IMG/VR virus record: IMGVR_UViG_3300035208_002098
Coordinates: 160,001-224,000 of that record
DNA: 64,000 bases
Origin: a virus
Taxonomy: Duplodnaviria; Caudoviricetes
Reading direction: 5' to 3' (one strand)
The translations under genes were made by a program, and so were the position numbers. The notes under the pieces were generated by a model. It saw only the letters and a program-made list of their open reading frames with translations, did no database searches and was not told the origin of the DNA. This document shows positions 3,585-33,235 of this stretch, in pieces (the stretch's first letter is position 1; each line of letters starts with the position of its first letter).

Positions 3585-4289
3585 TTATTTACGTTTTGTA
3601 ATAACCGAATCAATTATACCATAAGTAACTGCTTCTTGACTGGTTAACCATTTATCTCTTTCTGTATCTAACATAACTTCTTCAACTGATTTACCACAAT
3701 ACGATGCAAGTTTTGAAAAAAGTTCTAAGTTAATTTTTTCAGTTTCAATCATAGATATTCTCATATCTTGTATATTTCCTTCACTACCAGAAGACACTTG
3801 ATGTAACATAACTCTACTTGATGGTAAACTAGAACGTTTACCTTTAGTTCCAGCACCTAATAATACAGACCCCATTGATGCTGCCATACCAGTATTAATG
3901 GTTGCAATATCTGATTTAATATAATCCATAACATCAACCATTGATAATCCAGATTTAACACTTCCTCCGGGTGTATCTATATGCATTGTAATATCTTCAT
4001 TATTTACGTTGTCTAGAAACATTAATTGTGCTTGTACAACAGTACTCATAGCGTCATTAACAACACCAGCAATCCATAAAATTCTATCCATCATTAAACG
4101 TGAAAAGATATCCATTTGAGTTACACGCATTTCTCTTTCTTCAAGAATATATGGTGTCATTGATGCTTGTGTATACAATCTTGTTTGAAGTTGTTCCCAA
4201 GCTCTAAATTGCATTTGAGAAACACCTAGATGTCTACAAGCGTAGTTTTTAAATTCTCCGTAATAATCTACATTACTATAATTGTCCAT
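3585..4289 (-). CDS. clpP: Clp protease proteolytic subunit
   Basis: DIFSRLMMDRI, TPGGSV, AASMG (Ser), MLHQ (His); N-terminal extension of the Bacteroidota type. Confidence 0.96.
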   Translation of the reverse strand: MDNYSNVDYYGEFKNYACRHLGVSQMQFRAWEQLQTRLYTQASMTPYILEEREMRVTQMDIFSRLMMDRILWIAGVVNDAMSTVVQAQLMFLDNVNNEDITMHIDTPGGSVKSGLSMVDVMDYIKSDIATINTGMAASMGSVLLGAGTKGKRSSLPSSRVMLHQVSSGSEGNIQDMRISMIETEKINLELFSKLASYCGKSVEEVMLDTERDKWLTSQEAVTYGIIDSVITKRK

Positions 4290-5310: not shown

Positions 5311-6324
5311 TTAATTTTCAAGTTTTTCTTGTATTTCTTTTATTTTTTCTAATAATTGACGTTCTTCTGGTGATATTTCCTTTGGCATTAATATATTAAT
5401 TTGGATTAAATAATCCCCACGTTCTGTATTATTAACTATAGTCATACCTTTACCTTTTAAACGCAATATACTTTCATTATCACTATAAGGTGGTACATCT
5501 AATTTAATTGTGGTACCTTCAATTGTTGGAATCTCAATTTTAACACCTAAAATAGCATCAGGATAACTTATTTCTTTAATATATTTTAAATCCGATAACA
5601 CCCTTAAAAACTTTTCATGTTTGAATACATTAATAACAATTATTAAATTACCGCTATCACCATTTTTACATGCATTACCTTTACTATATTTTATCATACT
5701 ATCACCATCACTAATACCAGCTGGTATATTAATAGTTACTTCATCATTGATTGGTACAACACCATTACCGTTACAGGTTTTACATTGTGTTTTATACGTT
5801 TTACCATTACCACCACAATGATTACAAGGATATACATTTTGAACAACACCAACTTGTGTATTATAAACTTCTCTAATGATACCACTACCATGACATACAT
5901 TACAAGTTACTTCATCTTCACCACCAACACCTTTACAATCATTACAACTATCATATCTATTATATTTAAAAGTTTTATTAACACCATTAAATGCTTCTTC
6001 TAAACTTAATTTAATATTTAATCTAATATTTTGGCCGACTGGTCTAGTTTGTTGATTAAATTGTTGACGGAATCGTTCACCCCATTTAACAAAATCATCA
6101 TTATAGCCACCACGATTTGTCTGATGTCCATACTTATCGTAATTAGCTTTTTTATCAGGGTCTTTTAAAACTTCGTAAGCTTCATTAATTTCTTTGAAGG
6201 CATTAGCATCACCACCTTTATCCGGGTGGTGTTCTTTAGCTAAATTACGGTATGATTTTTTAATTTCTTTATCTGAAGCACCATTTTTAAGTCCAAGCAC
6301 TTCATAATAATCTCGTTTAGACAT
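5311..6324 (-). CDS. dnaJ: DnaJ chaperone
   Basis: J domain with HPD, four CxxCxGxG repeats, C-terminal domain. Confidence 0.96.
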   Translation of the reverse strand: MSKRDYYEVLGLKNGASDKEIKKSYRNLAKEHHPDKGGDANAFKEINEAYEVLKDPDKKANYDKYGHQTNRGGYNDDFVKWGERFRQQFNQQTRPVGQNIRLNIKLSLEEAFNGVNKTFKYNRYDSCNDCKGVGGEDEVTCNVCHGSGIIREVYNTQVGVVQNVYPCNHCGGNGKTYKTQCKTCNGNGVVPINDEVTINIPAGISDGDSMIKYSKGNACKNGDSGNLIIVINVFKHEKFLRVLSDLKYIKEISYPDAILGVKIEIPTIEGTTIKLDVPPYSDNESILRLKGKGMTIVNNTERGDYLIQINILMPKEISPEERQLLEKIKEIQEKLEN

Positions 6325-18098: not shown

Positions 18099-18365
18099 TT
18101 ATGAAGATTTATTACTTAACATTGTTTGCCAAAAACCTTTTTTTACCCATAAAGCTTTGAATAACTGAGTTATTACGTTTCTGGTAATATCAACGGTTTG
18201 ATTCTCTAAATCCTTATTCCCTTTAATTTCTTTTGAAACTAATTTAGAAATAATGTCTTTTAAATCTGATGATTTAATGGTTTTAGTAACCTCATCTTTA
18301 ATTTGGTCCTTTTCTTCCTTAGAGAAAGTTTCACTCAATCTTTGTTTAATTAGGTTTTGATACAT
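18099..18365 (-). CDS. Hypothetical protein
   Basis: 88 aa; ATATTTAT upstream; IKQRLSE leader. Confidence 0.7.
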   Translation of the reverse strand: MYQNLIKQRLSETFSKEEKDQIKDEVTKTIKSSDLKDIISKLVSKEIKGNKDLENQTVDITRNVITQLFKALWVKKGFWQTMLSNKSS

Positions 18366-18409: not shown

Positions 18410-18654
18410 TTATATAGTCATATTAATTGTAATGTGTTCTACTGGAGTTTCTGGTTGAACTAATAAATTATAGTAATTATCGTTTAACTCTGTTAATTCA
18501 TATCGAGAGTATAATAATCTAGATGGTGTAAACCCACATCACACATAACTGGAGTAGTTTGTACTGGAATATATGGCATCCAAACTAAACCTTCCGATAA
18601 TGTTGGGTTTGTAAAACTTAATTTTCTTCGTGATTTATAACCTAACCCAAACAT
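18410..18654 (-). CDS. FGxGYK-tagged capsid C-terminal fragment, split by a -1 frameshift
   Basis: Not in ORF track. Frame 0 (18654..18493): MFGLGYKSRRKLSF..GLVWMPYIPVQTTPV. Frame -1 continues FTPSRLLYSRY..NYY..VQPETPVEHITINMTI to the stop at 18410. Confidence 0.65.
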
Positions 18655-18848
18655 TAATTATTTTTTAAATCATTAAAAGCTTTAGCAAATTCACCAGAAC
18701 ATATAATAAAATTAGCACTACCATTCCTAGTTGCGTCATGCATTATTTTACAAGCTTTTTCAATTTTTTCTTGTAATTCTGACAATAATTTCTTTTGGTC
18801 TTTAAATGTTAAATCTTTTTTAGATTTATAACCTTCACCGAATGACAT
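18654..18848 (-). CDS. FGxGYK-tagged major-capsid-protein fragment
   Basis: MSFGEGYKSKKDLTF then LQEKIEKACKIMHDATRNGSANFIICSGEFAKAF, like the gp23 segment TRRGxGNFIICSxxVAxAL. Confidence 0.7.
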   Translation of the reverse strand: MSFGEGYKSKKDLTFKDQKKLLSELQEKIEKACKIMHDATRNGSANFIICSGEFAKAFNDLKNN

Positions 18849-18850
18849 AA

Positions 18851-19648
18851 TTAAAATCTTAAAAGCGAATAATGAATACCAATACCTATTTGTAACGATG
18901 GTTTTAAATTAGAACCAATACCAACACCTAAATAAGGACCAACACCCCATTTTTTCTGTACAACATATTTATTAAACACAGGGTTTTTTTTAGGGTCTAT
19001 AATAGCACCATCAATATTTAAAGCATTAAAACCCGGATAATCTGACCTAATAAAAATTTCTAAATTATCACCCTTTTCTCTTAAACCTGTAACTAAACTA
19101 AAATTAATTTCATCTTTTGTAATTAATGTTTGAGTTGGTATCACGGTTGAATCTTTTAATCTAAATTTACTTACACCTATAATATTTCTACTATTATTTG
19201 CACTATATATTGTATCGTGATGCCAAGCTAAACCATATTCACCATTAGGATAAATAATTACAGTATTTGTAATTTTAATGGTATCACCCGGTTTATTTTT
19301 AATACCTAATATAAATTTATTTAATTCATATACACGTCCTTTTTCTTTTTTAAGTTCTGAAGCTAAATCAGCATTAAGTTCTTTAAGACCATTTTTTTCT
19401 GTAATTAAAACATTTTTAGATGCTTCTAATTGACCAACTTTATTTTTAGATACTCTTACCGAATCAGATAACGCTTTATTATTTTGATTACTTATCTGTA
19501 AATCGTTTTTATTAGTACTACAGCTCCTAAGACTAAAAAACAATATTATACTCATACCAATTAACATAATTAATAAAGTATTACGTTGTTTATCAGTATT
19601 AAACCAACTAACAGCTTTTTTTTCAATTTCTTCTTTAATATCTGACAT
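18851..19648 (-). CDS. Membrane-anchored coiled-coil protein with C-terminal beta strands (spanin-like)
   Basis: TM/lipobox LRSCS, coiled coil, C-terminal WGVGPYLGVG..IGIGIHYSLLRF; near the amidase. Confidence 0.55.
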   Translation of the reverse strand: MSDIKEEIEKKAVSWFNTDKQRNTLLIMLIGMSIILFFSLRSCSTNKNDLQISNQNNKALSDSVRVSKNKVGQLEASKNVLITEKNGLKELNADLASELKKEKGRVYELNKFILGIKNKPGDTIKITNTVIIYPNGEYGLAWHHDTIYSANNSRNIIGVSKFRLKDSTVIPTQTLITKDEINFSLVTGLREKGDNLEIFIRSDYPGFNALNIDGAIIDPKKNPVFNKYVVQKKWGVGPYLGVGIGSNLKPSLQIGIGIHYSLLRF

Positions 19649-19665
19649 AATAAAACTTTTTTAAT

Positions 19666-20052
19666 TTATAATTTTGGTTTATAATCGGTTGCTAACTTTT
19701 GAGCCCAATCATCATGCCAACGTTTATAGTAACCAGTTAAGTGTTGTAACACTTCCATTGAATCATCACTTAATTGCATATTATTAACATTAATATATAG
19801 GCCATTAATACCTTCTAATGTACATTGGAATTCCATATTTAAATCTGGTATTGTACCGGATAATACAGCGTTACGTGCATTAGGATATACCTTAAATACA
19901 TTAAATTGGACCGATTTTGATACAATTTGCATAAATTGTGCTTGTTCTTCTTTTAATTCAGGACCTGTAACATCAATAGCGTCATTCGTTGCGTTTTCTC
20001 TAATAATGTTTAACATTCTTTTAGTCATGTCATGTTCGTCTATATTATTCAT
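19666..20052 (-). CDS. Hypothetical protein
   Basis: 128-aa ORF. Confidence 0.75.
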   Translation of the reverse strand: MNNIDEHDMTKRMLNIIRENATNDAIDVTGPELKEEQAQFMQIVSKSVQFNVFKVYPNARNAVLSGTIPDLNMEFQCTLEGINGLYINVNNMQLSDDSMEVLQHLTGYYKRWHDDWAQKLATDYKPKL

Positions 20053-20674
20053 AGTTTTCTAATTTATTTTTAAATAATTCGTAATTAAAAGCCGGACTTA
20101 AATCCGTGCTCTGTCTTTGATAATTGCTTTTGAAAACAATACCACGATATTCATAAATATCATCAACTTTTGTGTTGTGTCCAATTGTTTGTAACGGTAT
20201 CTTAAATTTATTTGATAAATATTTCGAAAGATATATTAATGATTCAATTTGTTTATCTGTATACCCATCCCAATATTCATGTGTTCTCCAAAGTCTTTTA
20301 AACATAGTATCAATATCATTATATTCATTACCTACCCATGTTGTTACCACACCATTTAATACATCATTAATTAACCACCCATTATTTTCCATAACTACAG
20401 GAATTATATGGTCATTAAGATTTTTATTATTTAAAAAATCTGAAGTATATTTCGGGTCATAATGCTGATATATATTACCATCTTTACTTATAGTAAACGC
20501 AGCGGTTTTTTTATATTCACCATAATATCTAGTTAACCAACCATTATAATGGTTCATACCACTAGAAAATGAATTACCTACAACTATTTGTGACTTTTTT
20601 TTAGCCGACCTACGATAATTACATTTAGGTAATTTATAACTTACATCATCTATTTTAATATCAGTTTCAACCAT
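20045..20674 (-). CDS. N-acetylmuramoyl-L-alanine amidase-like protein
   Basis: FTISKDGNIYQ, YTDKQIESL, IGHN, DLSPAF; first Zn-binding His appears missing. Confidence 0.7.
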   Translation of the reverse strand: MVETDIKIDDVSYKLPKCNYRRSAKKKSQIVVGNSFSSGMNHYNGWLTRYYGEYKKTAAFTISKDGNIYQHYDPKYTSDFLNNKNLNDHIIPVVMENNGWLINDVLNGVVTTWVGNEYNDIDTMFKRLWRTHEYWDGYTDKQIESLIYLSKYLSNKFKIPLQTIGHNTKVDDIYEYRGIVFKSNYQRQSTDLSPAFNYELFKNKLENYE

Positions 20675-21675
20675 TATTTATCTCTAAAAAATATAGTTTT
20701 TTTCTCATTATGTGGTCCAACTCTCATGATTTGGTTATTATTTACTGGTGTAGACTTAATATTTTGGTGTGGTGTTACACTATCAGTTACGACTTCATTA
20801 CCAGATATTACCGGTTCTTCATCTACAACATCAGTAGAAACCTCATCCACAACATCGATAACATCATCAGATATTACCGGTTCTTCAATTATTTCTTCGG
20901 TTTGTTTAACAGGGATAAAAAAATCTTCATTAACGGGTTCAACTTCTTTTATATCATTAATAAATTCTCTCGCAATTTCTTTAGCTTCATCTTCCGACAT
21001 TTTACCAACAGGAACTTTGAATATTCTTTTTCCCGTACTAGAAAACCCCGGTTCTGGTTGTAACAAATTCATAATGTTTTCATCATTAAAATAATCAATT
21101 TCTTCAATATCTGATGATACACCCTTTGGTTCATCATTTATTGGTGTTTCGGGAAATGGTATTGGGTCAGTGGTTTCTACTTTTAATTCATCACCTTCTT
21201 TATCATTAAAGTTAACTAATAAATGTAAGAATGATAGTGATATTATTGGTAATAAAGCCCCAGCAAATGCTGCTAACCACCTTCTATGTCCATCAATATC
21301 ACCAGTATCTACCATACTTAACATACTGAATAATGGGTCAACTAATATAACCCAATCTTTAAATAATTTACTTGTTACATCAACATATTGAAATACAAAA
21401 AACATATTACCTATTAATTGAATAAATGTTACTATTATAAATGGTAGGTATATTGCTTTATTATTTTTAACCGCTAATCCAGCTAAAGCACTTAAAGCCG
21501 CTATTTCAATACCAACCGATAAATATATTGCCCAGCTCATCGGATTTGTCATTGAATACCAAGTTATAACGTGTGATATCGATACAAATGCAACGAATAA
21601 TATAGGTATAATATAAGATAATCTTATGATTGTCTTATAATTATTTGTGAACCAATTTCTAATACTACTATACAT
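20674..21675 (-). CDS. Four-TM membrane protein with an acidic tail containing a portal-like insert
   Basis: TM helices in residues 15-155; KRIFKVPVGKM..EDFFIPVK at 21033..20905. Confidence 0.75.
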   Translation of the reverse strand: MYSSIRNWFTNNYKTIIRLSYIIPILFVAFVSISHVITWYSMTNPMSWAIYLSVGIEIAALSALAGLAVKNNKAIYLPFIIVTFIQLIGNMFFVFQYVDVTSKLFKDWVILVDPLFSMLSMVDTGDIDGHRRWLAAFAGALLPIISLSFLHLLVNFNDKEGDELKVETTDPIPFPETPINDEPKGVSSDIEEIDYFNDENIMNLLQPEPGFSSTGKRIFKVPVGKMSEDEAKEIAREFINDIKEVEPVNEDFFIPVKQTEEIIEEPVISDDVIDVVDEVSTDVVDEEPVISGNEVVTDSVTPHQNIKSTPVNNNQIMRVGPHNEKKTIFFRDK

Positions 21676-21677
21676 AA

Positions 21678-21971
21678 TTATTTATTTTCTAATTTATTTA
21701 TTTCCTTCTCATTATCACTTTGACGATTAACATCTAATAATTTTCTATCCGTTGCTTGAATAAATCTATTTTCCGTTTTAAGACCTTCTATTTTAATTGT
21801 TTTATTGATTTTTTCTATAGCTACAGCATTTGAATCAATAGCTTTCTTATTCACTACAGATAGTTGTTCTATTTTACTATTTGTTGAACATGTTCTAAAG
21901 AACATGATAAATATTAATGGTACTATAATTACCATCCCATATTCATTTAAAAAATTTCTAAGTTTTTTCAT
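21678..21971 (-). CDS. Putative lipoprotein
   Basis: Hydrophobic N-terminus ending FRTCS. Confidence 0.6.
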   Translation of the reverse strand: MKKLRNFLNEYGMVIIVPLIFIMFFRTCSTNSKIEQLSVVNKKAIDSNAVAIEKINKTIKIEGLKTENRFIQATDRKLLDVNRQSDNEKEINKLENK

Positions 21972-22033
21972 AATTTAAAGTTTTATTATAAATATATAAA
22001 CATATATTATTCTTTTGTAAAGTTTATTAACAT

Positions 22034-22057
22034 AAAAAAGGCCTCAGTTGAGGCCTT
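22034..22057 (-). terminator. Intrinsic terminator
   Basis: AGGCCTCA/TGAGGCCT stem plus T tract after the sigma gene. Confidence 0.85.
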
Positions 22058-22060
22058 AAT

Positions 22061-22894
22061 TTATTCTTTTTCATTATATATTAAATTATATAAATCGGTC
22101 ATATTATGTCTTAACTTTCTAATAGCCTTTTCTTTAATTTGACGAATTCGTTCTTTAGTTAAATTATATTTTTCACCAATACCTTCTAAAGTCATTGGCT
22201 CGTATAATTCATTTAATCCAAAATATAAAATAATGATGTCTTTTTCTCTATTAGTAAGGTCGGCCAGCATTTTATCTAACTCTTTTCTTATTAATTTATC
22301 ACTTTCTTCATCTTTTTCAGTTTCGTATGTTTCATAATTAAAAATCTCAATTAACTCATCGCCACTTTCATTTATGATAGTACTTAAAGATGTTGGACGT
22401 TCATTTAAAACTAAATCACTTAATTTTATATCAGCTAATTCACCAATACATGGACCATGCTCATGAGTTATCTCATAACGGTCAATATTCTTCTTAATTT
22501 GATTTAAACTATTAATAACGTTAGCTGGTAATCTAATTAACCTTGAATTGCAGTTTAATCCGTGTATAATAGATTGACGAACCCACCATACAGCATATGA
22601 TATAAATCTAAAACCTCTCGTATGGTCAAACTTAATCGCTGCTTTAATTAATCCTTCATTACCATCATTGATTAAATCATTAATATTTGTTCCTTGGTAT
22701 TGGTATTCCTTTGCTATGGAAATAACAAATTTAAGATTTGCTGTAACTAATTCTTCTATAGCACTAGCATCACCATCTTGTATTCTAATAGCTAACGCAA
22801 CTTCTTCTTCAGGTGTTAATAAATTAGTTTTTTTTATATCCTTAAAATACCTTGATAAAGTATCATCATTTCCATTAATAAATTTTTTTGACAT
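22061..22894 (-). CDS. RNA polymerase sigma factor, RpoD/SigA family without region 1.1
   Basis: ANLKFVISIAK, DLINDGNEGLIKAAIKFD, RFISYAVWWVRQ, LTKERIRQIKEKAIRKLR. Confidence 0.95.
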   Translation of the reverse strand: MSKKFINGNDDTLSRYFKDIKKTNLLTPEEEVALAIRIQDGDASAIEELVTANLKFVISIAKEYQYQGTNINDLINDGNEGLIKAAIKFDHTRGFRFISYAVWWVRQSIIHGLNCNSRLIRLPANVINSLNQIKKNIDRYEITHEHGPCIGELADIKLSDLVLNERPTSLSTIINESGDELIEIFNYETYETEKDEESDKLIRKELDKMLADLTNREKDIIILYFGLNELYEPMTLEGIGEKYNLTKERIRQIKEKAIRKLRHNMTDLYNLIYNEKE

Positions 22895-22986
22895 TCATAA
22901 AATCTTATAACTATTGTTATTTATACTCAATATAACATGAATATCACCCAATATACTATGTATATTGGATAAAGTCAATAGTTTTA

Positions 22987-23532
22987 CTAAGATTTTTTTG
23001 TTAAACACGATAAATATTTTTTATCATAATCAGTTAGTTTGTCTAACCCTTTATCAATCAATTTATTAATTTCAACTTGTTTTTCATTACTACTCATTTT
23101 TTTTATTGATTCCACCATAATTTTATCATCTGTGACTATAATAGCATCACTAACCGATGTACCACTATATTTAGATACGTGTTTTATATCTTTAAGTGAA
23201 GTAACTATATCTTTAAGTAATTTAACACTCATATCTTCTAGAATATCCGGGTTATTTTTAATTATCTTCTCAAAAAGTTTTTCATTCGTATCTTTACCAT
23301 CATTAATAAATGCTGCATAGGAACCACGATTCATTTCGAATAAAATAAAACTCCTATTATTCAACTTGAAATAGTCATTTAATTCATTTACCGAAACGGC
23401 ACTTGAAAATGTTGCTATTATTAAACCTTTAGCTTGTAATAGATTAACTGATGATTCTGAAATTTTTGTTATCTCATCTTTACCACCATTAATATCACCC
23501 AACATTATTAAACAATAATTTGTAAATTTCAT
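22987..23532 (-). CDS. Hypothetical protein
   Basis: 181-aa ORF. Confidence 0.75.
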   Translation of the reverse strand: MKFTNYCLIMLGDINGGKDEITKISESSVNLLQAKGLIIATFSSAVSVNELNDYFKLNNRSFILFEMNRGSYAAFINDGKDTNEKLFEKIIKNNPDILEDMSVKLLKDIVTSLKDIKHVSKYSGTSVSDAIIVTDDKIMVESIKKMSSNEKQVEINKLIDKGLDKLTDYDKKYLSCLTKKS

Positions 23533-23577
23533 ATTCTTTTTATTTAAAAATACTAACTTTTTTACTATTTCGCAACT

Positions 23578-25929
23578 TTATTTAGTAGAAATTGTTGAAA
23601 TATTGTTAACTTTTTTAATAGTAATAATATTATCGGCCCAATCTCTTATTATTGGGTTGTGGGTTATTAATAAAACGATATCAAACATATCTCTAATTTT
23701 ATCAAATAATAATTTCATATAATCTAAATTCTCATTTGCGACCTTACCTAAGACCTCATCAAATCCGATGAAGTTTGGTTTAGGTAAATTAGAAACTCGG
23801 CTTAAAACGCATCTTAATGCTAATGAGGCAGCTGTTTTCTCTAACCCGGAACCAGATTTAAGGAACTTACGAACATCATCTTTAATTATAATGAAATCTA
23901 AGTCATTTTTAGAGTTAATTTCCAATTCAATATCAAAATCAGTTACTTCATCTAATAAACGATGTAATTCAAAGTTAATTAATGGTAATACAGTACGTAA
24001 TACTAGTTTACTAATACCTTTTTTACCAACCATATCAATATAAATCTTATAAATTTGTTCAACCTTATCTTCTTTCTTAATAACCTCAATTATTTTAGTT
24101 TTATTTTCGATTTCAACCTTATTTTGTTCAATATCAGCTTTACATTTTTGTATTTTATTTAATGTAATATCACGGTCACCTTCATTACGTTGAATTTTAC
24201 CATTAACACCCATAATTTCAACATCTAATTGACGATTAAGTTCTATCGCACTATTATTTAGATTATATTTGTTTAAATCATTCCTTTTAGCTTTTAAATC
24301 ATTCCTTAATGAATTAATAACTACATCACATCGGTCTTTTTTTAATTCTAATTTATCTTTTTCATCAGATAATTCTTTAGACTGTTTCATAACAGTTAAA
24401 ACTTCAGATAATTTACTTAATTTTTTAATATATTCACTAATATTTTTTTTAAGTGTGTCTATTTTGGTAGAATTTTCACTTATGTGGTCAGTGTGGTCAA
24501 TACCAACTAATGGTCTTTTACACATAGTGCATATTTCACTATCTCTTAATTCAATATTTAAATTTTCAAGTCGTGTTATCTCCCTCTCACTAGTTTCTTT
24601 ATCTAATTTAGAGCTTCTTTGTTGTGATAAAGTATCTTCGTATATTAATTCATCAAACACCACATCGCCTATTTCAGTTATTCTTTTACTATATGTTTCT
24701 AGATTAACAGCCTCTAATTTACCTTTTGCAATAATTTCATCTATATCACGATTTATTTTATTTGGGTCTAATTGTATTATAGCATCATCAATTTCTTGTT
24801 TACTGGTTAATAATTTTTCTTTTTGACTATTTAATACAACCAATTCTTCATTAATTCTTTTTAGATTAGTTTCATTTGTTTCTAATGCAACACCAATGGA
24901 TATAATATTTTCTCCATGTTCATCAACTTCATGTCCAAGGTCAATAATATTATAATGATTTGATTTCATTGTTTTACTAAACGCATTATACATATCTCTA
25001 GCAGCTTGTTCTTTTTGTTCTATAATCTCCAACCCAATAAATCTAGTTAATAATTTACCTCTAGCAGTCGCTTGAGTATCTATTAAATCTTCTAAATTTT
25101 TACCTGTGGCTACTATTGTGGTCATGAAATCACTTTCGGTTCCAATAGTCTCAATTATTCTTTGAGTTGTTTCAATACCATCCTTACCATCTAATAATTT
25201 TTCTTCACCATCTGGTAAAATTTCATAATAGTTTACAGTATTTTTTATTGTATACCCACTACCGTCTCTTTTAGGGCTTCTAGTCATAAGTCTTTCAATA
25301 ATGAAATCATCACCACTAATATCTACCATACCCCTAACAGATAATTCATTACTACTACTAAATTGATTAAATATATCTTCGTTTTTATCTGTTTTTGTTG
25401 TTGTACCAAAGAATAAAAATAGTAACGCATCAATACTAAACGTTGTTTTACCACCTTGATTTAATGGCTCTGATGTGATAACATTAATACCTTTTAATTT
25501 ACTAAATGGTATATTATTATCTTCACCAAAACATAAAAAATTATTAATTACTAAGTGTTTTAAACTCCATGTCCTAAAATCGAATTCATTTTGTTTAAAA
25601 TCAATTGAATCATTAACTTTCTTATCTAACGCTAGTAATCTATCAAAATCAACTATTTTATTTTCACGGGCTATCCATTCTTTAAATAACTGATGTTGAT
25701 AATTAATATCCATAATATTTTCAATCCCTACACCAGTTAATTGAATGATATTACCATCTTTGTCTTTTTTAACAGGTCTAAAAATTACATTTACCGAATT
25801 TTTTGGAACACCATATTTATTCGAAAAATAATTTCTAACTCTATTTCTATCTTCTCTTGAATACTTCTCTGGTTTATCATCCCAATATATTCTAAGTGAT
25901 GCTTTATTTGGTATATCTATTTTACTCAT
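23578..25929 (-). CDS. SbcC/Rad50 (T4 gp46-like) ATPase
   Basis: Walker A NQGGKTT, CTMC hook, signature SGLE, Walker B FDEV, LITH. Confidence 0.92.
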   Translation of the reverse strand: MSKIDIPNKASLRIYWDDKPEKYSREDRNRVRNYFSNKYGVPKNSVNVIFRPVKKDKDGNIIQLTGVGIENIMDINYQHQLFKEWIARENKIVDFDRLLALDKKVNDSIDFKQNEFDFRTWSLKHLVINNFLCFGEDNNIPFSKLKGINVITSEPLNQGGKTTFSIDALLFLFFGTTTKTDKNEDIFNQFSSSNELSVRGMVDISGDDFIIERLMTRSPKRDGSGYTIKNTVNYYEILPDGEEKLLDGKDGIETTQRIIETIGTESDFMTTIVATGKNLEDLIDTQATARGKLLTRFIGLEIIEQKEQAARDMYNAFSKTMKSNHYNIIDLGHEVDEHGENIISIGVALETNETNLKRINEELVVLNSQKEKLLTSKQEIDDAIIQLDPNKINRDIDEIIAKGKLEAVNLETYSKRITEIGDVVFDELIYEDTLSQQRSSKLDKETSEREITRLENLNIELRDSEICTMCKRPLVGIDHTDHISENSTKIDTLKKNISEYIKKLSKLSEVLTVMKQSKELSDEKDKLELKKDRCDVVINSLRNDLKAKRNDLNKYNLNNSAIELNRQLDVEIMGVNGKIQRNEGDRDITLNKIQKCKADIEQNKVEIENKTKIIEVIKKEDKVEQIYKIYIDMVGKKGISKLVLRTVLPLINFELHRLLDEVTDFDIELEINSKNDLDFIIIKDDVRKFLKSGSGLEKTAASLALRCVLSRVSNLPKPNFIGFDEVLGKVANENLDYMKLLFDKIRDMFDIVLLITHNPIIRDWADNIITIKKVNNISTISTK

Positions 25930-26224
25930 CGTATATATCTGTCTTTAAATTGTTTTTATCTTTTTTAATAATAATGTCCTGTTTGTCCGGATTAATGTCC
26001 GGATTAATAAGTAAATCAAGAATAGGTACTGGTGGTGATAAACTTATTACTGGTATTATTTCATTAGCTATTGTTGGGTTTGTTCTACCTTGGAACATTT
26101 CTGGTTTATACCCATATTTTTCTATTGTAAAGGCCCTTTTTAATAATTTATCTTTAAAACCTTCAATATCAGTAATATTATTCGCATTACAATATTGTAA
26201 TATTTCATCGTGTATACTAGACAT
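25922..26224 (-). CDS. Hypothetical protein
   Basis: 100-aa ORF between the sbcD- and sbcC-like genes. Confidence 0.65.
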   Translation of the reverse strand: MSSIHDEILQYCNANNITDIEGFKDKLLKRAFTIEKYGYKPEMFQGRTNPTIANEIIPVISLSPPVPILDLLINPDINPDKQDIIIKKDKNNLKTDIYDE

Positions 26225-26227
26225 AGT

Positions 26228-27037
26228 TTACGGGTTTAATAATTCTTCACCGTTATTTTCTATATCATCTAGTGATGATATTTTAAATTTATAGAATCCG
26301 TATTCTGATATAATATCCTTTTCTTCAGGTACCTTAGTTTCAATATCCCATAATAAGTAACCATGTTTACTAATACTTTCACCGAAATCTTGTTGTATTA
26401 AACTAGATGGATACCAAATAGGTACATTATCTTTATTTATTTGTTGCCTTTTATGAATATCACCCAACATTACAATATCACAACCATCAAAATTGTCTAC
26501 TTCTACACCATCTTCAAATTCATACCCTAAATTTGTTGTTGCACCAACCATTGGTGCATGAAGTAAACCAATAAATGTTTTATTTGGATTTTCAAGTCTT
26601 GCAGCCTCGATATCAGGTCTTTTATTCTCTTCAAAAATAGAATAATTACACCAAACAATATTATCGTCAACATAACATAAACTTTCCTTATAAAACTTAA
26701 TATCTGGGTTATCCATTAATGTTATTACTGGTGTTAAACTATCTAATCTATCTTTATTATTCTCTAATAAATCGTGATTACCGGCTATAATTATTGTAGG
26801 TGCTAACTTAGCACATCGTTTAAGAAACCAAGCTATAAAAGTTAATTGTTCATTAGATATAGTTATTTTTTGGTGAACCAAATCACCTACTATAACTATT
26901 CTAATCTCTTCCTTAGAAAAACCACTAATTTCTTTTTTAACACTTTTAAAGAATTCAACAGAAATTTCTTGGTATTCTTCGTGTCGTTTAAATGTTCGAA
27001 CATGAAGGTCCGAAATATGTATTACCTTTTTTATCAT
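26228..27037 (-). CDS. SbcD/Mre11 (T4 gp47-like) metallophosphoesterase nuclease
   Basis: SDLH, GDLVH, GNHD, LGDIH motifs. Confidence 0.92.
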   Translation of the reverse strand: MIKKVIHISDLHVRTFKRHEEYQEISVEFFKSVKKEISGFSKEEIRIVIVGDLVHQKITISNEQLTFIAWFLKRCAKLAPTIIIAGNHDLLENNKDRLDSLTPVITLMDNPDIKFYKESLCYVDDNIVWCNYSIFEENKRPDIEAARLENPNKTFIGLLHAPMVGATTNLGYEFEDGVEVDNFDGCDIVMLGDIHKRQQINKDNVPIWYPSSLIQQDFGESISKHGYLLWDIETKVPEEKDIISEYGFYKFKISSLDDIENNGEELLNP

Positions 27038-27549
27038 TATATATGTAAATAATTATTCATAAGTAGTAATGTACTCATTAGATTAGCGAAACATATCACT
27101 TCTATATTCCAAATCATATGTTCTTTATTACCGATTAAATATAATATAAGTGTTTCAATTAATATAAACCCACCTACAATTAATCCAAGATTAAAATTTA
27201 ATAATGTTATACCAATATAACACCCTAATATACCACCAATAGCACCCACCATGTGAATGATAAATTTCCATTTAGTTTGTATTCTACTAAATATACCAAC
27301 TAAAGATAATAACAAACCCGATATTAAAAATGCTGGGCTACCCCAACCAATACCACTTAATATAATGGCCGTAGCTAATATCCAAATGAAAAAACGAAAT
27401 GTGTTCCTATATCTCCATTCTAAATCATAAAATGAAATTGATATAGATTTCTGTATACCGTATCTACCCCATATATATGAGATATATTCTAAAAAATCGA
27501 CAATACCTAATAACAATGCAATATTTTTAATCAATTCTAGTGTCACCAT
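27037..27549 (-). CDS. Multi-pass membrane protein
   Basis: About six hydrophobic segments. Confidence 0.75.
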   Translation of the reverse strand: MVTLELIKNIALLLGIVDFLEYISYIWGRYGIQKSISISFYDLEWRYRNTFRFFIWILATAIILSGIGWGSPAFLISGLLLSLVGIFSRIQTKWKFIIHMVGAIGGILGCYIGITLLNFNLGLIVGGFILIETLILYLIGNKEHMIWNIEVICFANLMSTLLLMNNYLHI

Positions 27550-27551
27550 AC

Positions 27552-28118
27552 TTACTTAATATTATTTAATTTGTTATGACATTCTCTAATAATAAAAGCG
27601 TCCCACATTGCATTATGTTTAATTTTTTTAAATTTACGTGGTATTGTAATTTCACCAACAAATTCTTCTCTTGAAATATCTGGGTCAATACCTTTTTCTC
27701 TAAAAGATGTACAAATATCAAATGGAATATAATATACGTTCTCAGGTATGTTAAATGCATGACCAAATATTTGGTTAAATAACATCCAATCATATGTTAA
27801 ACAATCTGACCACATTTCAATTTCCCCAAATTGGTCCAACCATTTAATTAATTCAATGTGTAATGAATCTATATCTCCAAAATGTTGTATATCACCCGTT
27901 TTTTTATCTTCTATTGTAGTCCAAGGGTCTTCTTTTAGTATTAGATTTTCTATTACATTTGTTTTAATCCATTCATCTATTTGTAATTCATCATAATCAA
28001 ATAACTCAGCATAAAATGTTTTACCACACTCAGATATTAAACCAATCGATATTAATGTTGTTTTTTGATGCAAACCAGTAAATTCGGTGTCAAAAAAAAT
28101 TTTTTTCTTAATAGTCAT
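27552..28118 (-). CDS. DEDDh 3'-5' exoribonuclease (Rv2179c-like)
   Basis: FFDTEFTGL, LISIGL, YDW, HNAMWDA. Confidence 0.85.
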   Translation of the reverse strand: MTIKKKIFFDTEFTGLHQKTTLISIGLISECGKTFYAELFDYDELQIDEWIKTNVIENLILKEDPWTTIEDKKTGDIQHFGDIDSLHIELIKWLDQFGEIEMWSDCLTYDWMLFNQIFGHAFNIPENVYYIPFDICTSFREKGIDPDISREEFVGEITIPRKFKKIKHNAMWDAFIIRECHNKLNNIK

Positions 28119-28488
28119 AATTTTTTATTTTAATTAGTTTTTCGTTATATATGTTATAAATTTTTATTATATTATTTTCAATATTATTTGTAAACTGTAC
28201 TTCGTAACGACCACATAATATTGATGATTCAGCATTATAATATTCAAACTCATAAAAAAGTGGAGCAAGAATATGATGAGTTAAAATATTAGTACCACCC
28301 ATTATACCACTACTCTTAAAAATTTTAGCTGATTGTTGATTTATTTTAGTTAATAAAGTTTTATTCCAATTCATTTGATTGTATAAATTATTACCAACCC
28401 ATTGTTTATAATCCCATGAATTTGAATCAAATAGAATATAATCATATTTAAAACTAAAATTTTTGGTTTTATAATCAATAAAATCCAT
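28108..28488 (-). CDS. Major-capsid-protein fragment-like protein
   Basis: WDY..WNKTLLTKINQQSAKIFKSSGIMGG..FEYY..LCGRYEV; aligns with 18654..18848. Confidence 0.65.
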   Translation of the reverse strand: MDFIDYKTKNFSFKYDYILFDSNSWDYKQWVGNNLYNQMNWNKTLLTKINQQSAKIFKSSGIMGGTNILTHHILAPLFYEFEYYNAESSILCGRYEVQFTNNIENNIIKIYNIYNEKLIKIKNYDY

Positions 28489-28489
28489 G

Positions 28490-29248
28490 TTATTTACCAG
28501 CTAATTCCATTTGATATTTATGATGTTTTAATAACTTTTCAGCCTCATGTTTCATATACATCAAATTTATTTTAGAGAATTTCTCAGTCTTTTTATCGAA
28601 ATATAAAGCATATAATTGTCTACATTTTCTACCAGTTGAAACCTCATACATATAAGCATATACACTTAATTGTAGTGTATATACCACAAATTGACAATCC
28701 TGTAAATGTGAAAATGGTTGTTTTAATGTTTGTTTGTATTGTGAATAAAAGTTAAAAACTTTATTTGTTTTAAAATCACCAACATCAAAAAATACATCAT
28801 CTATGTCTATAACTAAATCCGATGTACCAGCTAATTTATACTCTTCTGAAAATAAAGCTAGTTCTGGGTGTACTTGAATACCTTCATCTAATTCTAATTC
28901 ATCAAATGCACGACAAACCCTAACATCAAAATCATTATCCGGGAAAAACCATTTTTTAGCTAATAAATATTTTTCGAGTACTTCGTGTACGTGTGTACCA
29001 TAAGCATTTGCAGTATCATTAATTTCTTGCCAATAAGCTATTAACCTATCTTTAGACATACCAATATAATCCTTATTTTTCTTTGGGTCTAAATCAGATT
29101 GTTTTGATATTGCAGTTGCTACAGCTTCTGTATCAAATTCGTGTTCTATACTTGATATTACAGTAGTAACTGATGTAAAAATTTCACCAGTTTCAATATG
29201 ATGATATTTATGAGCTATTGGTTCTAATACTACCTTTGATTTATACAT
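28490..29248 (-). CDS. PD-(D/E)xK (RecB/Cas4-like) exonuclease
   Basis: SVTT, GTHVH, AGTSDL, DFKTNK, LQLSVYA. Confidence 0.88.
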   Translation of the reverse strand: MYKSKVVLEPIAHKYHHIETGEIFTSVTTVISSIEHEFDTEAVATAISKQSDLDPKKNKDYIGMSKDRLIAYWQEINDTANAYGTHVHEVLEKYLLAKKWFFPDNDFDVRVCRAFDELELDEGIQVHPELALFSEEYKLAGTSDLVIDIDDVFFDVGDFKTNKVFNFYSQYKQTLKQPFSHLQDCQFVVYTLQLSVYAYMYEVSTGRKCRQLYALYFDKKTEKFSKINLMYMKHEAEKLLKHHKYQMELAGK

Positions 29249-29267
29249 ATTTCTATTTAATTAATAA

Positions 29268-29298
29268 CAAAGATATATAATATTTTATATTATTTCAA
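29268..29298 (-). promoter_or_regulatory. Bacteroidota-type promoter
   Basis: TTG-N20-TATCTTTG. Confidence 0.75.
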
Positions 29299-29321
29299 GA
29301 TATTTATGTAAAAAGAACTTA

Positions 29322-29858
29322 ATGGATAACTATATTAAAAAATTACTTAGAGAATACTATGATGACTACAACGATATAGATATTAGCTCATTCACAGATG
29401 CTGATATGGATAATATGGCATACCAAACAGTTAAACAACTTAAAATAGATAATAAAACTAAAGAGTTACTTAAAAATATTAATTGGACTGAAATTAAAGT
29501 TTCTAGAAAAAGTAATGACTTTTTACGTATTATTTTACCGTATGGTAAATTTTCTGAAGGTATATACGTGATGATTTCAGTTGATTCTGATGGGTTAAAT
29601 CATATGCATATAGAATTAGCTAAATCATTACAAAGTTTAGGCTTAGGTTATAAGATTCATAAAGCAGTTATAAATTATATAGGTCATATTTATTCACCAG
29701 TAGCTGATAGGAAAAATAAATTAATTAATAATGTATATAATCGTCTATCTAACGACCCAGATTTAGAATGTTTTAGAAATAAAGCTAATAGTGATATTTG
29801 TTTTATGAAAAATAAGGTAAATAAGATTTTATTAAGTAAATTCTCTAAGTTAACTTAA
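29322..29858 (+). CDS. GNAT-like protein with IKKLLRE leader
   Basis: HIELAKSLQSLGLGYKIH resembles the acetyl-CoA motif QxxGxG; ATATTTAT at 29300. Confidence 0.5.
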   Translation: MDNYIKKLLREYYDDYNDIDISSFTDADMDNMAYQTVKQLKIDNKTKELLKNINWTEIKVSRKSNDFLRIILPYGKFSEGIYVMISVDSDGLNHMHIELAKSLQSLGLGYKIHKAVINYIGHIYSPVADRKNKLINNVYNRLSNDPDLECFRNKANSDICFMKNKVNKILLSKFSKLT

Positions 29859-30808
29859 TATTTAAACCGGGTTAACCTCTTAGCTGTTCGTAATACTTTA
29901 ATTACTTCCTTCCTACCAAAATCTTGGTGAATTTTAGCGATATCGTAATCACGTGGTAATATAACTATCTTAACTAAATGACCTATTGGTGTATAAAATA
30001 ATTGTTTATATAAATTTTCAGCATCTTTCTCGGCATCAGCATCTAATACAATGACTATATTACCCTTTGCTTTAGTAATTAATGTTTCTAATAATAAATC
30101 TGATATATATTTTCCTAATAACGGTATTGAGTTAGGTGTTACAATGTGGTCAAATGGTCCTTCAACTAAATAAATTGTCGCATCCCATTTTATTTTATTT
30201 TCGTTAAATATTATAAAACTTTTATCACTTTCATCATTCATGTATTTTGGTTTAACCCAAGAAAATGCTCTGCCAACAAAATAATTTAATTCTTCACAAC
30301 TATCATACGATGGTATTACAACACGTAAAAAATGTTTACCACTACTTGTATACCCAATGTTATAATAATCTATTATATCTTGTGTAATACGCCTTCCTTT
30401 TAAATACTTCATAGCTTCTTGGTATCTGCTATCGTAAATGTATTTATCTTTAAGTGATAAAAAAGTTTCTGGTAATTTAACCTCAACTAATTGCTTTTCT
30501 TCAGAACCATATTTATCTATTTTGGAATCTGGTTTTATTATAAGGTATTGTTTTAGATGTTTTTTCTGACCATATTTCCTAATTAACGATGGTATATACC
30601 CACTCATATGGTTGGTGTCCTTACAAGACCAACATTTATAAACACCCTTTTCGTAATTTACTTCTAAGTTACCCTTACCGTCACCACCAATTAAATCTTT
30701 ATCTGCAGCACAGGCTGGACAGTCAAAAGAAATTTGTCCTTTTTCTTCTGTATGTTTCCTAGGTTCACCTAAAAAATCGGATAATATATCTACTATAAAC
30801 GAGCTCAT
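29855..30808 (-). CDS. DNA primase
   Basis: CPAC...CWSC zinc finger, TOPRIM VEGPFD and LDADA. Confidence 0.92.
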   Translation of the reverse strand: MSSFIVDILSDFLGEPRKHTEEKGQISFDCPACAADKDLIGGDGKGNLEVNYEKGVYKCWSCKDTNHMSGYIPSLIRKYGQKKHLKQYLIIKPDSKIDKYGSEEKQLVEVKLPETFLSLKDKYIYDSRYQEAMKYLKGRRITQDIIDYYNIGYTSSGKHFLRVVIPSYDSCEELNYFVGRAFSWVKPKYMNDESDKSFIIFNENKIKWDATIYLVEGPFDHIVTPNSIPLLGKYISDLLLETLITKAKGNIVIVLDADAEKDAENLYKQLFYTPIGHLVKIVILPRDYDIAKIHQDFGRKEVIKVLRTAKRLTRFKY

Positions 30809-30814
30809 TATCTG

Positions 30815-30845
30815 CAAAGATACTAAAAAAAAATAAAAGTAACAA
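30815..30845 (-). promoter_or_regulatory. Bacteroidota-type promoter
   Basis: TTG-N20-TATCTTTG. Confidence 0.75.
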
Positions 30846-30875
30846 TATTTTTAGATATTTATATAAAAATTAAAT

Positions 30876-31289
30876 ATGAATTTAAGTAAATTACTTCGTG
30901 AACGATTATTAGAATATGATAATAATATATTAACTGTATATCATGGTACTAATTCAAAACATTTAAATAATATTTTGAATAATGGTTTAGTTGATAAAAC
31001 TAGTAATTATAATAGTGCTTCGTGGTATATGGTTTCAACTGATTTAAATAGTGCTTTATTTCACGCAACCCCACAAGATGAAGACGATGTTGTATATGTA
31101 ATTGAATTTAATATACCGGTAACCGATAATGATAGGTGGTTTGGGTTTCCATATTTATGGAAAGGTTATGTTAGAAATGATAAATCGACTTGGTTTGCGT
31201 TAAAACAACCATTAACTAAAAATATGATTAATAAGGTACATAAAATAGGTAAAGATATTTGGTTAAAACAGAAAAACGATAAGTATTAA
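30876..31289 (+). CDS. ADP-ribosyltransferase-fold protein with KLLRE leader
   Basis: VYHGT..ILNNGL..YMVSTDLNSALFHA; ATATTTATA at 30855. Confidence 0.6.
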   Translation: MNLSKLLRERLLEYDNNILTVYHGTNSKHLNNILNNGLVDKTSNYNSASWYMVSTDLNSALFHATPQDEDDVVYVIEFNIPVTDNDRWFGFPYLWKGYVRNDKSTWFALKQPLTKNMINKVHKIGKDIWLKQKNDKY

Positions 31290-31759
31290 AAAGTTAATAT
31301 ACAGTTTAATGGTTCAACGACTATCTTTATGGTTTGTATATCATCATTTTCATAAGATAATTCACCAAAATCTATCAATTTAATCCTTTTAACATTAATT
31401 AACCAATCTTCAATTACAACACCAGTCACATCCAAACTTTTAATATTAAAAGAAAATAAAGGTCCTCTAGTAAAAATACTCCTTTTTTTAGGTAATGAAT
31501 TATATAAATATTGTGACATAGATGGATGTATAGGGTCATACAATTCAATAATAATATCTTCCCATTTTTCACTATATTTAGGTTTACTTATACTAGATAT
31601 AAAAAATTCGTCAATATTCCTGAAATTAATTAGAAATCTACTAGTTCTTTTCGGTTCATACATTGGTTGTAATGGTATACCAGAAAATTTTGTCGTTGTA
31701 TCTCTAAAGAAACTAAATACTTTTGTAAACTTATATCCGGAACCAAATATTAGTCCCAT
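31286..31759 (-). CDS. FGxGYK-tagged divergent tail-tube-like protein
   Basis: MGLIFGSGYKFTKVFSF then YEPKRTSRF..LYDPIHPS..LDVTGVVIEDW..DFGELSY..CIL (gp19-like); lies among replication genes. Confidence 0.7.
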   Translation of the reverse strand: MGLIFGSGYKFTKVFSFFRDTTTKFSGIPLQPMYEPKRTSRFLINFRNIDEFFISSISKPKYSEKWEDIIIELYDPIHPSMSQYLYNSLPKKRSIFTRGPLFSFNIKSLDVTGVVIEDWLINVKRIKLIDFGELSYENDDIQTIKIVVEPLNCILTF

Positions 31760-33205: not shown

Positions 33206-33235
33206 ATATTATAAATATATTAAAAATTGTGAAAA

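Follow-up and report, generated by a model that had tools for sequence, protein, structure and literature searches.

Trimmed pieces of capsid and tail-tube proteins in small, N-terminally tagged genes of a jumbo phage

The window analysed here is a 64,000-nt stretch of viral DNA, positions 160,001-224,000 of the linear 248,412-nt virus contig G000 (IMG/VR record IMGVR_UViG_3300035208_002098, ~70% complete). It carries four small genes in which a short N-terminal peptide, the tag, is joined to a trimmed piece of a virion protein, the payload, taken from the major capsid protein (MCP) or the tail tube. The feature is real, selected and undescribed within the searched literature; literature searches returned no description of such a family, most subscription papers lying outside their coverage. 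A first-pass annotation of the window had reported three genes with an exact, identically spaced N-terminal motif and a looser fourth, and all four open reading frames (ORFs) and their motifs were recovered in place on the minus strand. Unprefixed coordinates are window positions, G000 coordinates are those of the contig, and (-) denotes the minus strand.

Payload genes and their virion relatives

The payload genes and the features within them are as follows.

18654..18848 (-): 64-amino-acid (aa) protein, tag plus capsid A-domain helix-strand-helix (MCP 439-483; BLASTP E 6e-4)
18493..18654 (-): 53-aa frame-0 ORF, tag plus C-terminal piece of the capsid as far as the PY-x-P motif (MCP 534-552; BLASTP E 0.055)
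18410..18535 (-): -1 frame that extends the capsid match as far as MCP 578, open to the stop at 18410-18412
18529..18535 (-): GGGTTTA heptamer where the frame breaks, in X XXY YYZ phase, read from the sequence
28108..28488 (-): 126-aa protein, N/D-type tag plus stand-alone capsid A-domain (MCP 422-~520; BLASTP E 6e-10 over MCP 422-490)
31286..31759 (-): 157-aa protein, tag plus tail-tube core (29% identity, BLASTP E 2e-13, to the canonical tube G000:243430-243918)
31559..31579 (-): hairpin deletion site by alignment, 14 residues between the conserved Pro and the conserved Asp anchor, where the true tube has 32

The window ends just past the sheath gene, and the canonical tube gene lies outside it. 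No copy of the MCP gene was found on the 248,412-nt contig; capsid comparisons were made with the MCPs of relatives having 80-90% identical tubes. No cultured phage is a close member of the clade (~40-43% across half length for the best MCP matches), and the clade MCP aligns to T4 gp23 with E 1e-24.

For the capsid payloads, the clade MCP was searched by BLASTP against all ORFs of the genome. The top five matches were all fragments. The capsid is the dominant fragment donor in this genome. The capsid payloads have gp23/gp24 sequence homology (PF07068/PHROG 138), and three payloads align to the A-domain or C-terminal strands of gp23 (PDB 5VF3/6UZC) and its paralogue gp24. They differ from these subunits in being single blocks of 64-126 aa that are tagged, patchily distributed and outside the head cluster. 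Each fragment gene covers 45-100 of 595 capsid residues and none a complete HK97 fold with N-arm, E-loop, P-domain and A-domain, in agreement with the first-pass view of payloads outside the structural block and too short for capsid subunits. The 64-aa protein matched Pfam Gp23 (E 0.007) and PHROG major head (E 0.0015), and 96 phage records matched it weakly, mostly gp23-type capsids. It covers the same MCP segment as the 126-aa protein, so that the payloads, of which those behind the three exact tags had been described as unrelated, are not all independent. The tag of the 126-aa protein is indeed looser, yet this gene is the best capsid fragment. Homologue searches with 28108-28488 and 18654-18848 returned only the queries themselves. 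Profile, BLAST and fold tests agree on the proposed likeness of the payloads to capsid and tube.

The C-terminal-fragment gene overlaps the 64-aa gene stop to start and is broken in frame. The PY-x-P part of its expected segment was found in the 53-aa ORF, but the FxP...[ST]RY part only in the -1 frame. Read through with X at the break, the product is 81 aa long and matches MCP 534-578 with E 1.5e-4; without read-through E is 0.33. The gene is intact as a single 84-aa ORF in X3, a sister strain of ~97-98% identity, and the same slot of G032, the closest IMG/VR relative, holds a 112-aa orthologue that bears a diverged tag of the FG type and covers the same part of the capsid (E 4e-4). The heptamer is slippery and in phase, but the break is not conserved and no stimulatory structure was found: the downstream fold is weak (-6.5 kcal/mol), and such heptamers occur at 0.0086 per base. 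As the gene is one uninterrupted ORF both in X3 and in G032, the break is more likely to be a lesion or a scar of recombination than a conserved recoding site, and a programmed -1 frameshift at 18529-18535 is doubtful. Assembly error is an unlikely cause, as separate assemblies, possibly from one sample, give the 53-aa product. The gene had been thought to be missed by ORF calling, but 18493-18654 is predicted by public gene callers. The 16 residues that close the -1 frame (18410-18460; X3 allele QPE.PVE..TINM) are not capsid-derived, and a search for a sheath-like match to them gave nothing significant.

Elsewhere on the contig, two capsid fragments of the untagged type (G000:126405-127399) are among the top five MCP matches. 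They lie in a region (G000:126059-127399; L001:505-1845) of three tandem genes with a common ~55-aa N-terminal domain, one of which carries a capsid spine-helix segment (E 1e-7) and another the capsid N-arm, interrupted at a G5 run by a +1 frame break. The design of ~55-aa domain plus capsid piece is repeated in many relatives, one of them (L361) with the Gol region.

Eleven further tagged genes were found at G000:10464-13326 and 22310-23400, and the two distant tagged groups that they form adjoin each other in three phages (G000, L171 and L172). Profile-profile tests gave these groups no sequence link to capsid or tube. For one group (G000:12200-12782 and 22310-23400), one Atlas model matches capsid A-domains with a template-modelling (TM) score of 0.61-0.66 (by query, 79-90 residues). 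On this model, stand-alone A-domains appear to be the commonest tagged payload. For the second group the Atlas search was blank, and weak matches to tube paralogues (E 0.2-1.3) amount to no more than a hint.

The tube paralogue (31286-31759) matched the PHROG tail tube (E 1e-7), and its predicted model has the tube/Hcp fold with the tag left unmodelled; the top Foldseek matches were tube, Hcp and extracellular contractile injection system (eCIS) tube chains (best E 7.5e-5). With the canonical gene at G000:243430-243918, it is not the sole tube gene. It had been called nearly complete, which it is not functionally: most of the stacking hairpin is missing (18/32 residues), no intact ring-stacking hairpin is left, and the second loop is also shortened. 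This hairpin is shortened or remodelled in 23/23 tube copies of the clade, whose mean mutual identity is 32%, against 80-90% among true tubes, and the copies' conserved residues lie on both ring-forming faces. Fold and ring faces are thus shared with the gp19/Hcp family and its paralogues gp3, gp48 and gp54; the copies differ in being hairpin-poor, fast-evolving and non-universal, and they are placed among replication or lysis genes, not in the tail cluster. No second tube copy was found in the complete genomes G001 and G002. Locus searches with the tagged tube, P0018 and the group alignment gave no confirmed relatives, by exact-word methods that miss fast-evolving genes.

For docking, the tube copy was modelled with two true tubes and was placed side by side with them at a score of 0.70 (best control 0.01), with partner pLDDT (predicted local distance difference test) of 76 and agreement between runs in at least 80% of contacts. 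The docking mark was passed by 58/80 solved pairs and 2/110 mismatched pairs. Because tube rings are already solved, which may explain the pass, it is read as likeness to the ring interface and not as binding.

The tag, its spread and selection on the genes

The four tags lie at the following positions.

18804..18842 (-): 13-residue tag of the 64-aa protein (rank 16/5645 N-termini with a profile from 11 distant tagged genes)
18613..18651 (-): 13-residue tag of the capsid C-terminal-fragment gene (strict pattern)
31709-31747 (-): tag of the tube paralogue (strict pattern)
28450-28482 (-): N/D-type tag of the 126-aa protein (looser scan)

In all six frames of the contig, FG.GYK.{4}[LF][ST]F, the strict pattern, was matched three times and no more, each time N-terminally: the ORFs that end at 18654, 18848 and 31759 carry it from residue 2, 3 and 5, respectively; the chance expectation by composition is 1.2e-6 at N-termini and 3.6e-5 anywhere. 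Since the three tags differ at synonymous sites and have no upstream DNA in common, constraint appears to act on the peptide, not on the DNA. A nucleotide-level cassette with a common promoter or ribosome-binding site was rejected. In X3, the tag at 18613..18651 is protein-identical despite two synonymous changes.

The looser scan that returned the eleven distant genes also returned 28108-28488. The strict motif is one variant of a wider frame, F-x2/3-Y-x4-6-[LFMI]-x-F, and tagged genes number 15 in G000 and six in two other phages (L171/L172), 21 in total; one L171/L172 variant has the Y-K-S...L-S-F spacing of the window tags. The expectation that the tag would stand at other N-termini was therefore borne out, by wider variants on 12 more G000 genes and the six in L171/L172. 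Four tag positions are invariant in the 21 genes of three phages, whose bodies are only 26-39% identical. Scored with the 11-gene profile, the genes ending at 28488, 18848 and 18654 ranked 15, 16 and 17 of 5,645 N-termini, below the training set and one chance ORF. The tag of the tube paralogue ranked 1684, its family link being made via the strict pattern only. A tag-like match in G002 was discarded as an antisense chance ORF and sets the chance ceiling of the profile. Scans of IMG/VR with DNA patterns for the tags gave none or five chance matches, an absence not proven by exact-word methods that miss fast-evolving genes. Five other relatives, in full or large-part sequence, contained no tagged genes.

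The F..GYK of the tag at 18613..18651 aligns in register with FTVGYK, a strand of T4 gp23 just before the PY motif, and because of this register the glycine variant of the tag may derive from capsid sequence. Clamp-binding, ClpP IGF-loop and membrane-anchor readings failed to fit both tag variants. The phage encodes a ClpP-like protease (63% to that of a relative) and DnaJ at 3585-4289 and 5311-6324, which are candidate tag partners.

For the distribution of payloads, the slot holding 18410-18848 was sampled in 97 distinct relatives. A tube paralogue occupies it in 22 of them, with hairpins of 19-29 residues and in no case with this tag. Untagged capsid fragments (N-arm, Gol region, spine helix, A-domain) are present in 7/9 near-complete relatives, and five capsid-fragment classes recur in relatives. 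The orthologue of 28108-28488 in the same nuclease operon of G032 is untagged. Intact orthologues at conserved slots are 50-76% identical. The window payload genes are near-singletons in protein databases, and the capsid and tube payloads are nearer to the clade's own proteins than to those of any cultured phage. Because the same payload classes are widespread without the tag, keeping such payloads is the older practice, common to the whole clade, and the tag is an add-on of one sub-lineage that can be present or absent. The modular architecture of tag and payload proposed at first pass is supported, but across the clade the tag does not define the system.

Two further observations concern tube and capsid copies in relatives. 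Upstream of 4001 in L190, L196, L204, L208, L214, L250 and others, tube paralogues carry a different common N-terminal module (IP.YD..TGE.N..YE.LTG..NPL) and aromatic/basic hairpin tips, e.g. WWNFW or LGIK. Short near-identical duplicates of the capsid 3' end, downstream of the capsid locus (L123:1498-1602 and L126; G004, G001), are unlike the diverged fragments and consistent with intron/endonuclease insertion scars.

For selection estimates, the genes were compared with X3, in which the 64-aa gene and the tube copy are intact; strain runs X4 and X6 yielded short pieces only. The ratio of nonsynonymous to synonymous polymorphism (pN/pS) was 0.21 for the 64-aa gene, 0.27 for the C-terminal-fragment gene and 0.24 for the tube copy, and 0.24 pooled over these three strictly tagged genes (binomial p ~0.005; 19 changes, one strain). 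The 3' half of the C-terminal-fragment gene is 28% diverged between strains, against 2.7% in the flank, and its motif pattern is retained; run X5 carries the X3-type allele. One low-depth X5 contig joins 28135 to 28490, whereby 28108-28488 is gone as a unit. These comparisons show purifying selection and allele exchange, the pattern of non-essential conflict genes, which are kept intact, swapped, gained and lost.

Neutral debris, that is, duplicated fragments on their way to being lost under a functionless tag spread by local duplication, would fit the frameshifted window allele and the frame break in the capsid fragment G000:126405-126843. The strain contig without 28108-28488 and the near-singleton status of the genes point the same way. 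Yet the pooled pN/pS speaks against the neutral decay that the first pass had considered, as do the four invariant tag positions in 21 genes, the intact orthologues at conserved slots and the tight translational coupling, so that this very improbable reading is already largely refuted.

Operons, promoters and neighbouring leaders

The following promoter-like motifs head the operons that hold the payload genes.

21988..21995 (-): ATATTTAT motif at the lysis operon head, also upstream of the tube and sheath genes; putative late promoter
29268..29275 (-): TAnnTTTG motif at the head of the nuclease operon (holding 28108-28488), Bacteroidota -7 type; putative host-polymerase promoter
33211..33218 (-): ATATTTAT motif upstream of the endonuclease-RuvC-tagged tube run; putative late promoter

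The putative late motif thus stands upstream of 2/3 payload operons and the host-type motif upstream of the third. The lysis operon ends in the two capsid-fragment genes; its lysis-like part (18851-21971) encodes a membrane protein, Amidase_2 and a spanin-like protein, with a strong terminator at 22038-22057 ahead of it. A sigma-70 scan stayed below shuffled background, and PADLOC gave a single CARF match (E 0.0075), taken as chance. Shine-Dalgarno motifs are near-absent from the genes (2.2% vs 3.1% background), whose starts are A-rich at -3 and -11 to -13; these two traits suggest a host among the Bacteroidota.

A second, Glu-ended leader family, K..IK..L(R)E, heads over ten genes of this phage, many having a ATATTTAT motif of their own, and is also present clade-wide; in the window it stands at 18099-18365, 29322-29858 and 30876-31289, and at others genome-wide. 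It is probably a head-loading signal. The gene at 30876-31289 has weak ADP-ribosyltransferase-like/Tpt1 matches and 0 amino-acid changes against X3 in 75 codons. At G000:122055-123432, four tandem genes with divergent bodies have the common N-terminal motif (H)S.VDVITNSS.

This leader bears on the reading of the tag as a T4-type capsid targeting sequence (CTS), by which the payloads would be loaded into the head and injected with the DNA. A short conserved leader on small, hypervariable, partly tandem proteins is the design of the T4 internal proteins IPI-III (PMC3012670). T4 targeting relies on two residues three apart, like the two aromatics (F..Y) of the commoner tag variant, and is possible without cleavage (PMC9026906). 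The T4 rule, however, includes an L/I-x-E prohead-protease site (PMC9026906), found within 0/21 tags; the lack of this Glu site, together with the separate Glu-ended leaders of the phage, makes T4-type targeting a poor fit. The tag is also confined to one sub-lineage, an orthologous payload in G032 does not carry it, the bodies here are pieces of virion proteins, and 28108-28488 lies behind a host-type promoter motif. Head-loading is accordingly unlikely.

Possible roles of the trimmed copies

Tentatively, and with less than even confidence, we favour the reading of the payloads as self-mimics that cannot polymerise and that decoy or mask against capsid- and tube-sensing host immunity. Pieces of the capsid and tube genes would have been duplicated, trimmed to one interaction-bearing block (A-domain, C-terminal strands or hairpin-less tube core) and retained as separate small proteins. 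Such copies would keep their subunit-binding surfaces but build no shell or tube. The A-domain copies would occupy a host sensor without activating it, and the tube copy would bind and mask the phage's own unassembled subunits. The tag would be a later, lineage-specific docking peptide, probably binding one common partner that localises, stabilises or disposes of the payloads. We infer that the genes are expressed, that the products bind in cells and act against sensors, and that the tag has a partner. Avs7/8/10 bind the capsid A-domain and Avs16 the tube hairpin (10.64898/2026.01.04.697583), and DSR2 reads monomeric tube (PMC11087589). The blocks kept by the payloads are those that mediate subunit contacts and are read by host sensors. 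Because the hairpin, the Avs16 epitope, is lost, masking or capping is more coherent than decoying for the tube copy.

Several points weigh against these roles. Lacking the hairpin bound by Avs16, the tube copy is no decoy for that family, and a copy of a trigger could equally switch the sensor on. At 64 and 81/84 aa, the shorter capsid pieces probably lack the size to fold alone as an A-domain, and the predicted model of the 126-aa protein is poor (pLDDT 43). Virion homology was not detectable by profile tests in the tagged group at G000:10464-13326. Neighbouring genes have pN/pS of 0-0.08, the tagged genes being under looser selection; that estimate comes from 19 changes in one strain, the swapped 3' half has a nonsynonymous to synonymous rate ratio (dN/dS) of 0.6, and the window allele of its gene is frameshifted. 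By their motifs, the payload genes also seem to lie in operons of differing timing.

Alternatively, in the main rival account, the copies may be assembly poisons or modulators that co-assemble and stop growth, sabotaging co-infecting relatives or tuning the phage's own assembly, a possible reading that we nevertheless regard as doubtful. Deletion of the stacking loop abolished tube growth in SPP1 and T5 and gave free rings in YSD1 (PMC8718954), and the clade's copies combine conserved residues on both ring faces with an altered hairpin in every case. The payloads are closest to the clade's own proteins, relatives' subunits are 67-90% identical, and the putative late promoter is on two of the three operons. 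A poison fitting 80-90% identical relatives should, however, also strike the phage's own subunits, and no immunity determinant is apparent. Moreover, complete relatives manage without a tube copy, and the docking pass may reflect memory of solved rings. Tab/Tai (PMC10884400, PMC11364771) are alike in this rival logic, being small proteins that derail the virion assembly of competitors. They differ in being prophage or host defence genes; the present genes belong to a jumbo phage, apparently a lytic one, and have their origin in its own subunits. The likeness is one of logic, and homology is not claimed.

An unlikely account is exaptation, in which capsid and tube pieces serve as stable scaffolds for unrelated functions, e.g. 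membrane or host-protein binding, and the tag as a general docking or degradation motif. Many copies are far diverged, the sequence link of the distant A-domain group is not significant, and the tag also stands on a non-virion group. Tube hairpins of relatives are replaced by aromatic/basic tips that resemble membrane-dipping loops, and the phage encodes ClpP and DnaJ. The retained residues, however, are ring-interface and capsid core motifs, and exaptation gives no account of the repeated independent choice of the capsid as donor.

For the favoured reading of self-mimics, the nearest known logic is that of DSAD1, an anti-DSR2 protein, and other competitive anti-sensors, in which a small protein competes with the virion trigger. 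DSAD1 is not reported as a trimmed tube copy (PMC11087589), and the likeness here is one of proposed logic, from genes alone. An extended form, a modular counter-immunity toolkit in which self-derived virion domains bait or mask receptors and a swappable tag couples them to an effector (scaffold, membrane site or protease) neutralising the bound target, is unlikely as well. Judged by its genes, the architecture appears to fall outside every known family considered, and its function is only proposed.

Shape-reading bacterial sensors of the capsid A-domain and of the tail tube are known, and such core folds are hard to mutate away. The clade repeatedly keeps the sensor-read blocks as separate small proteins, a clonable panel of 64-157 aa for decoy, mask and poison tests.

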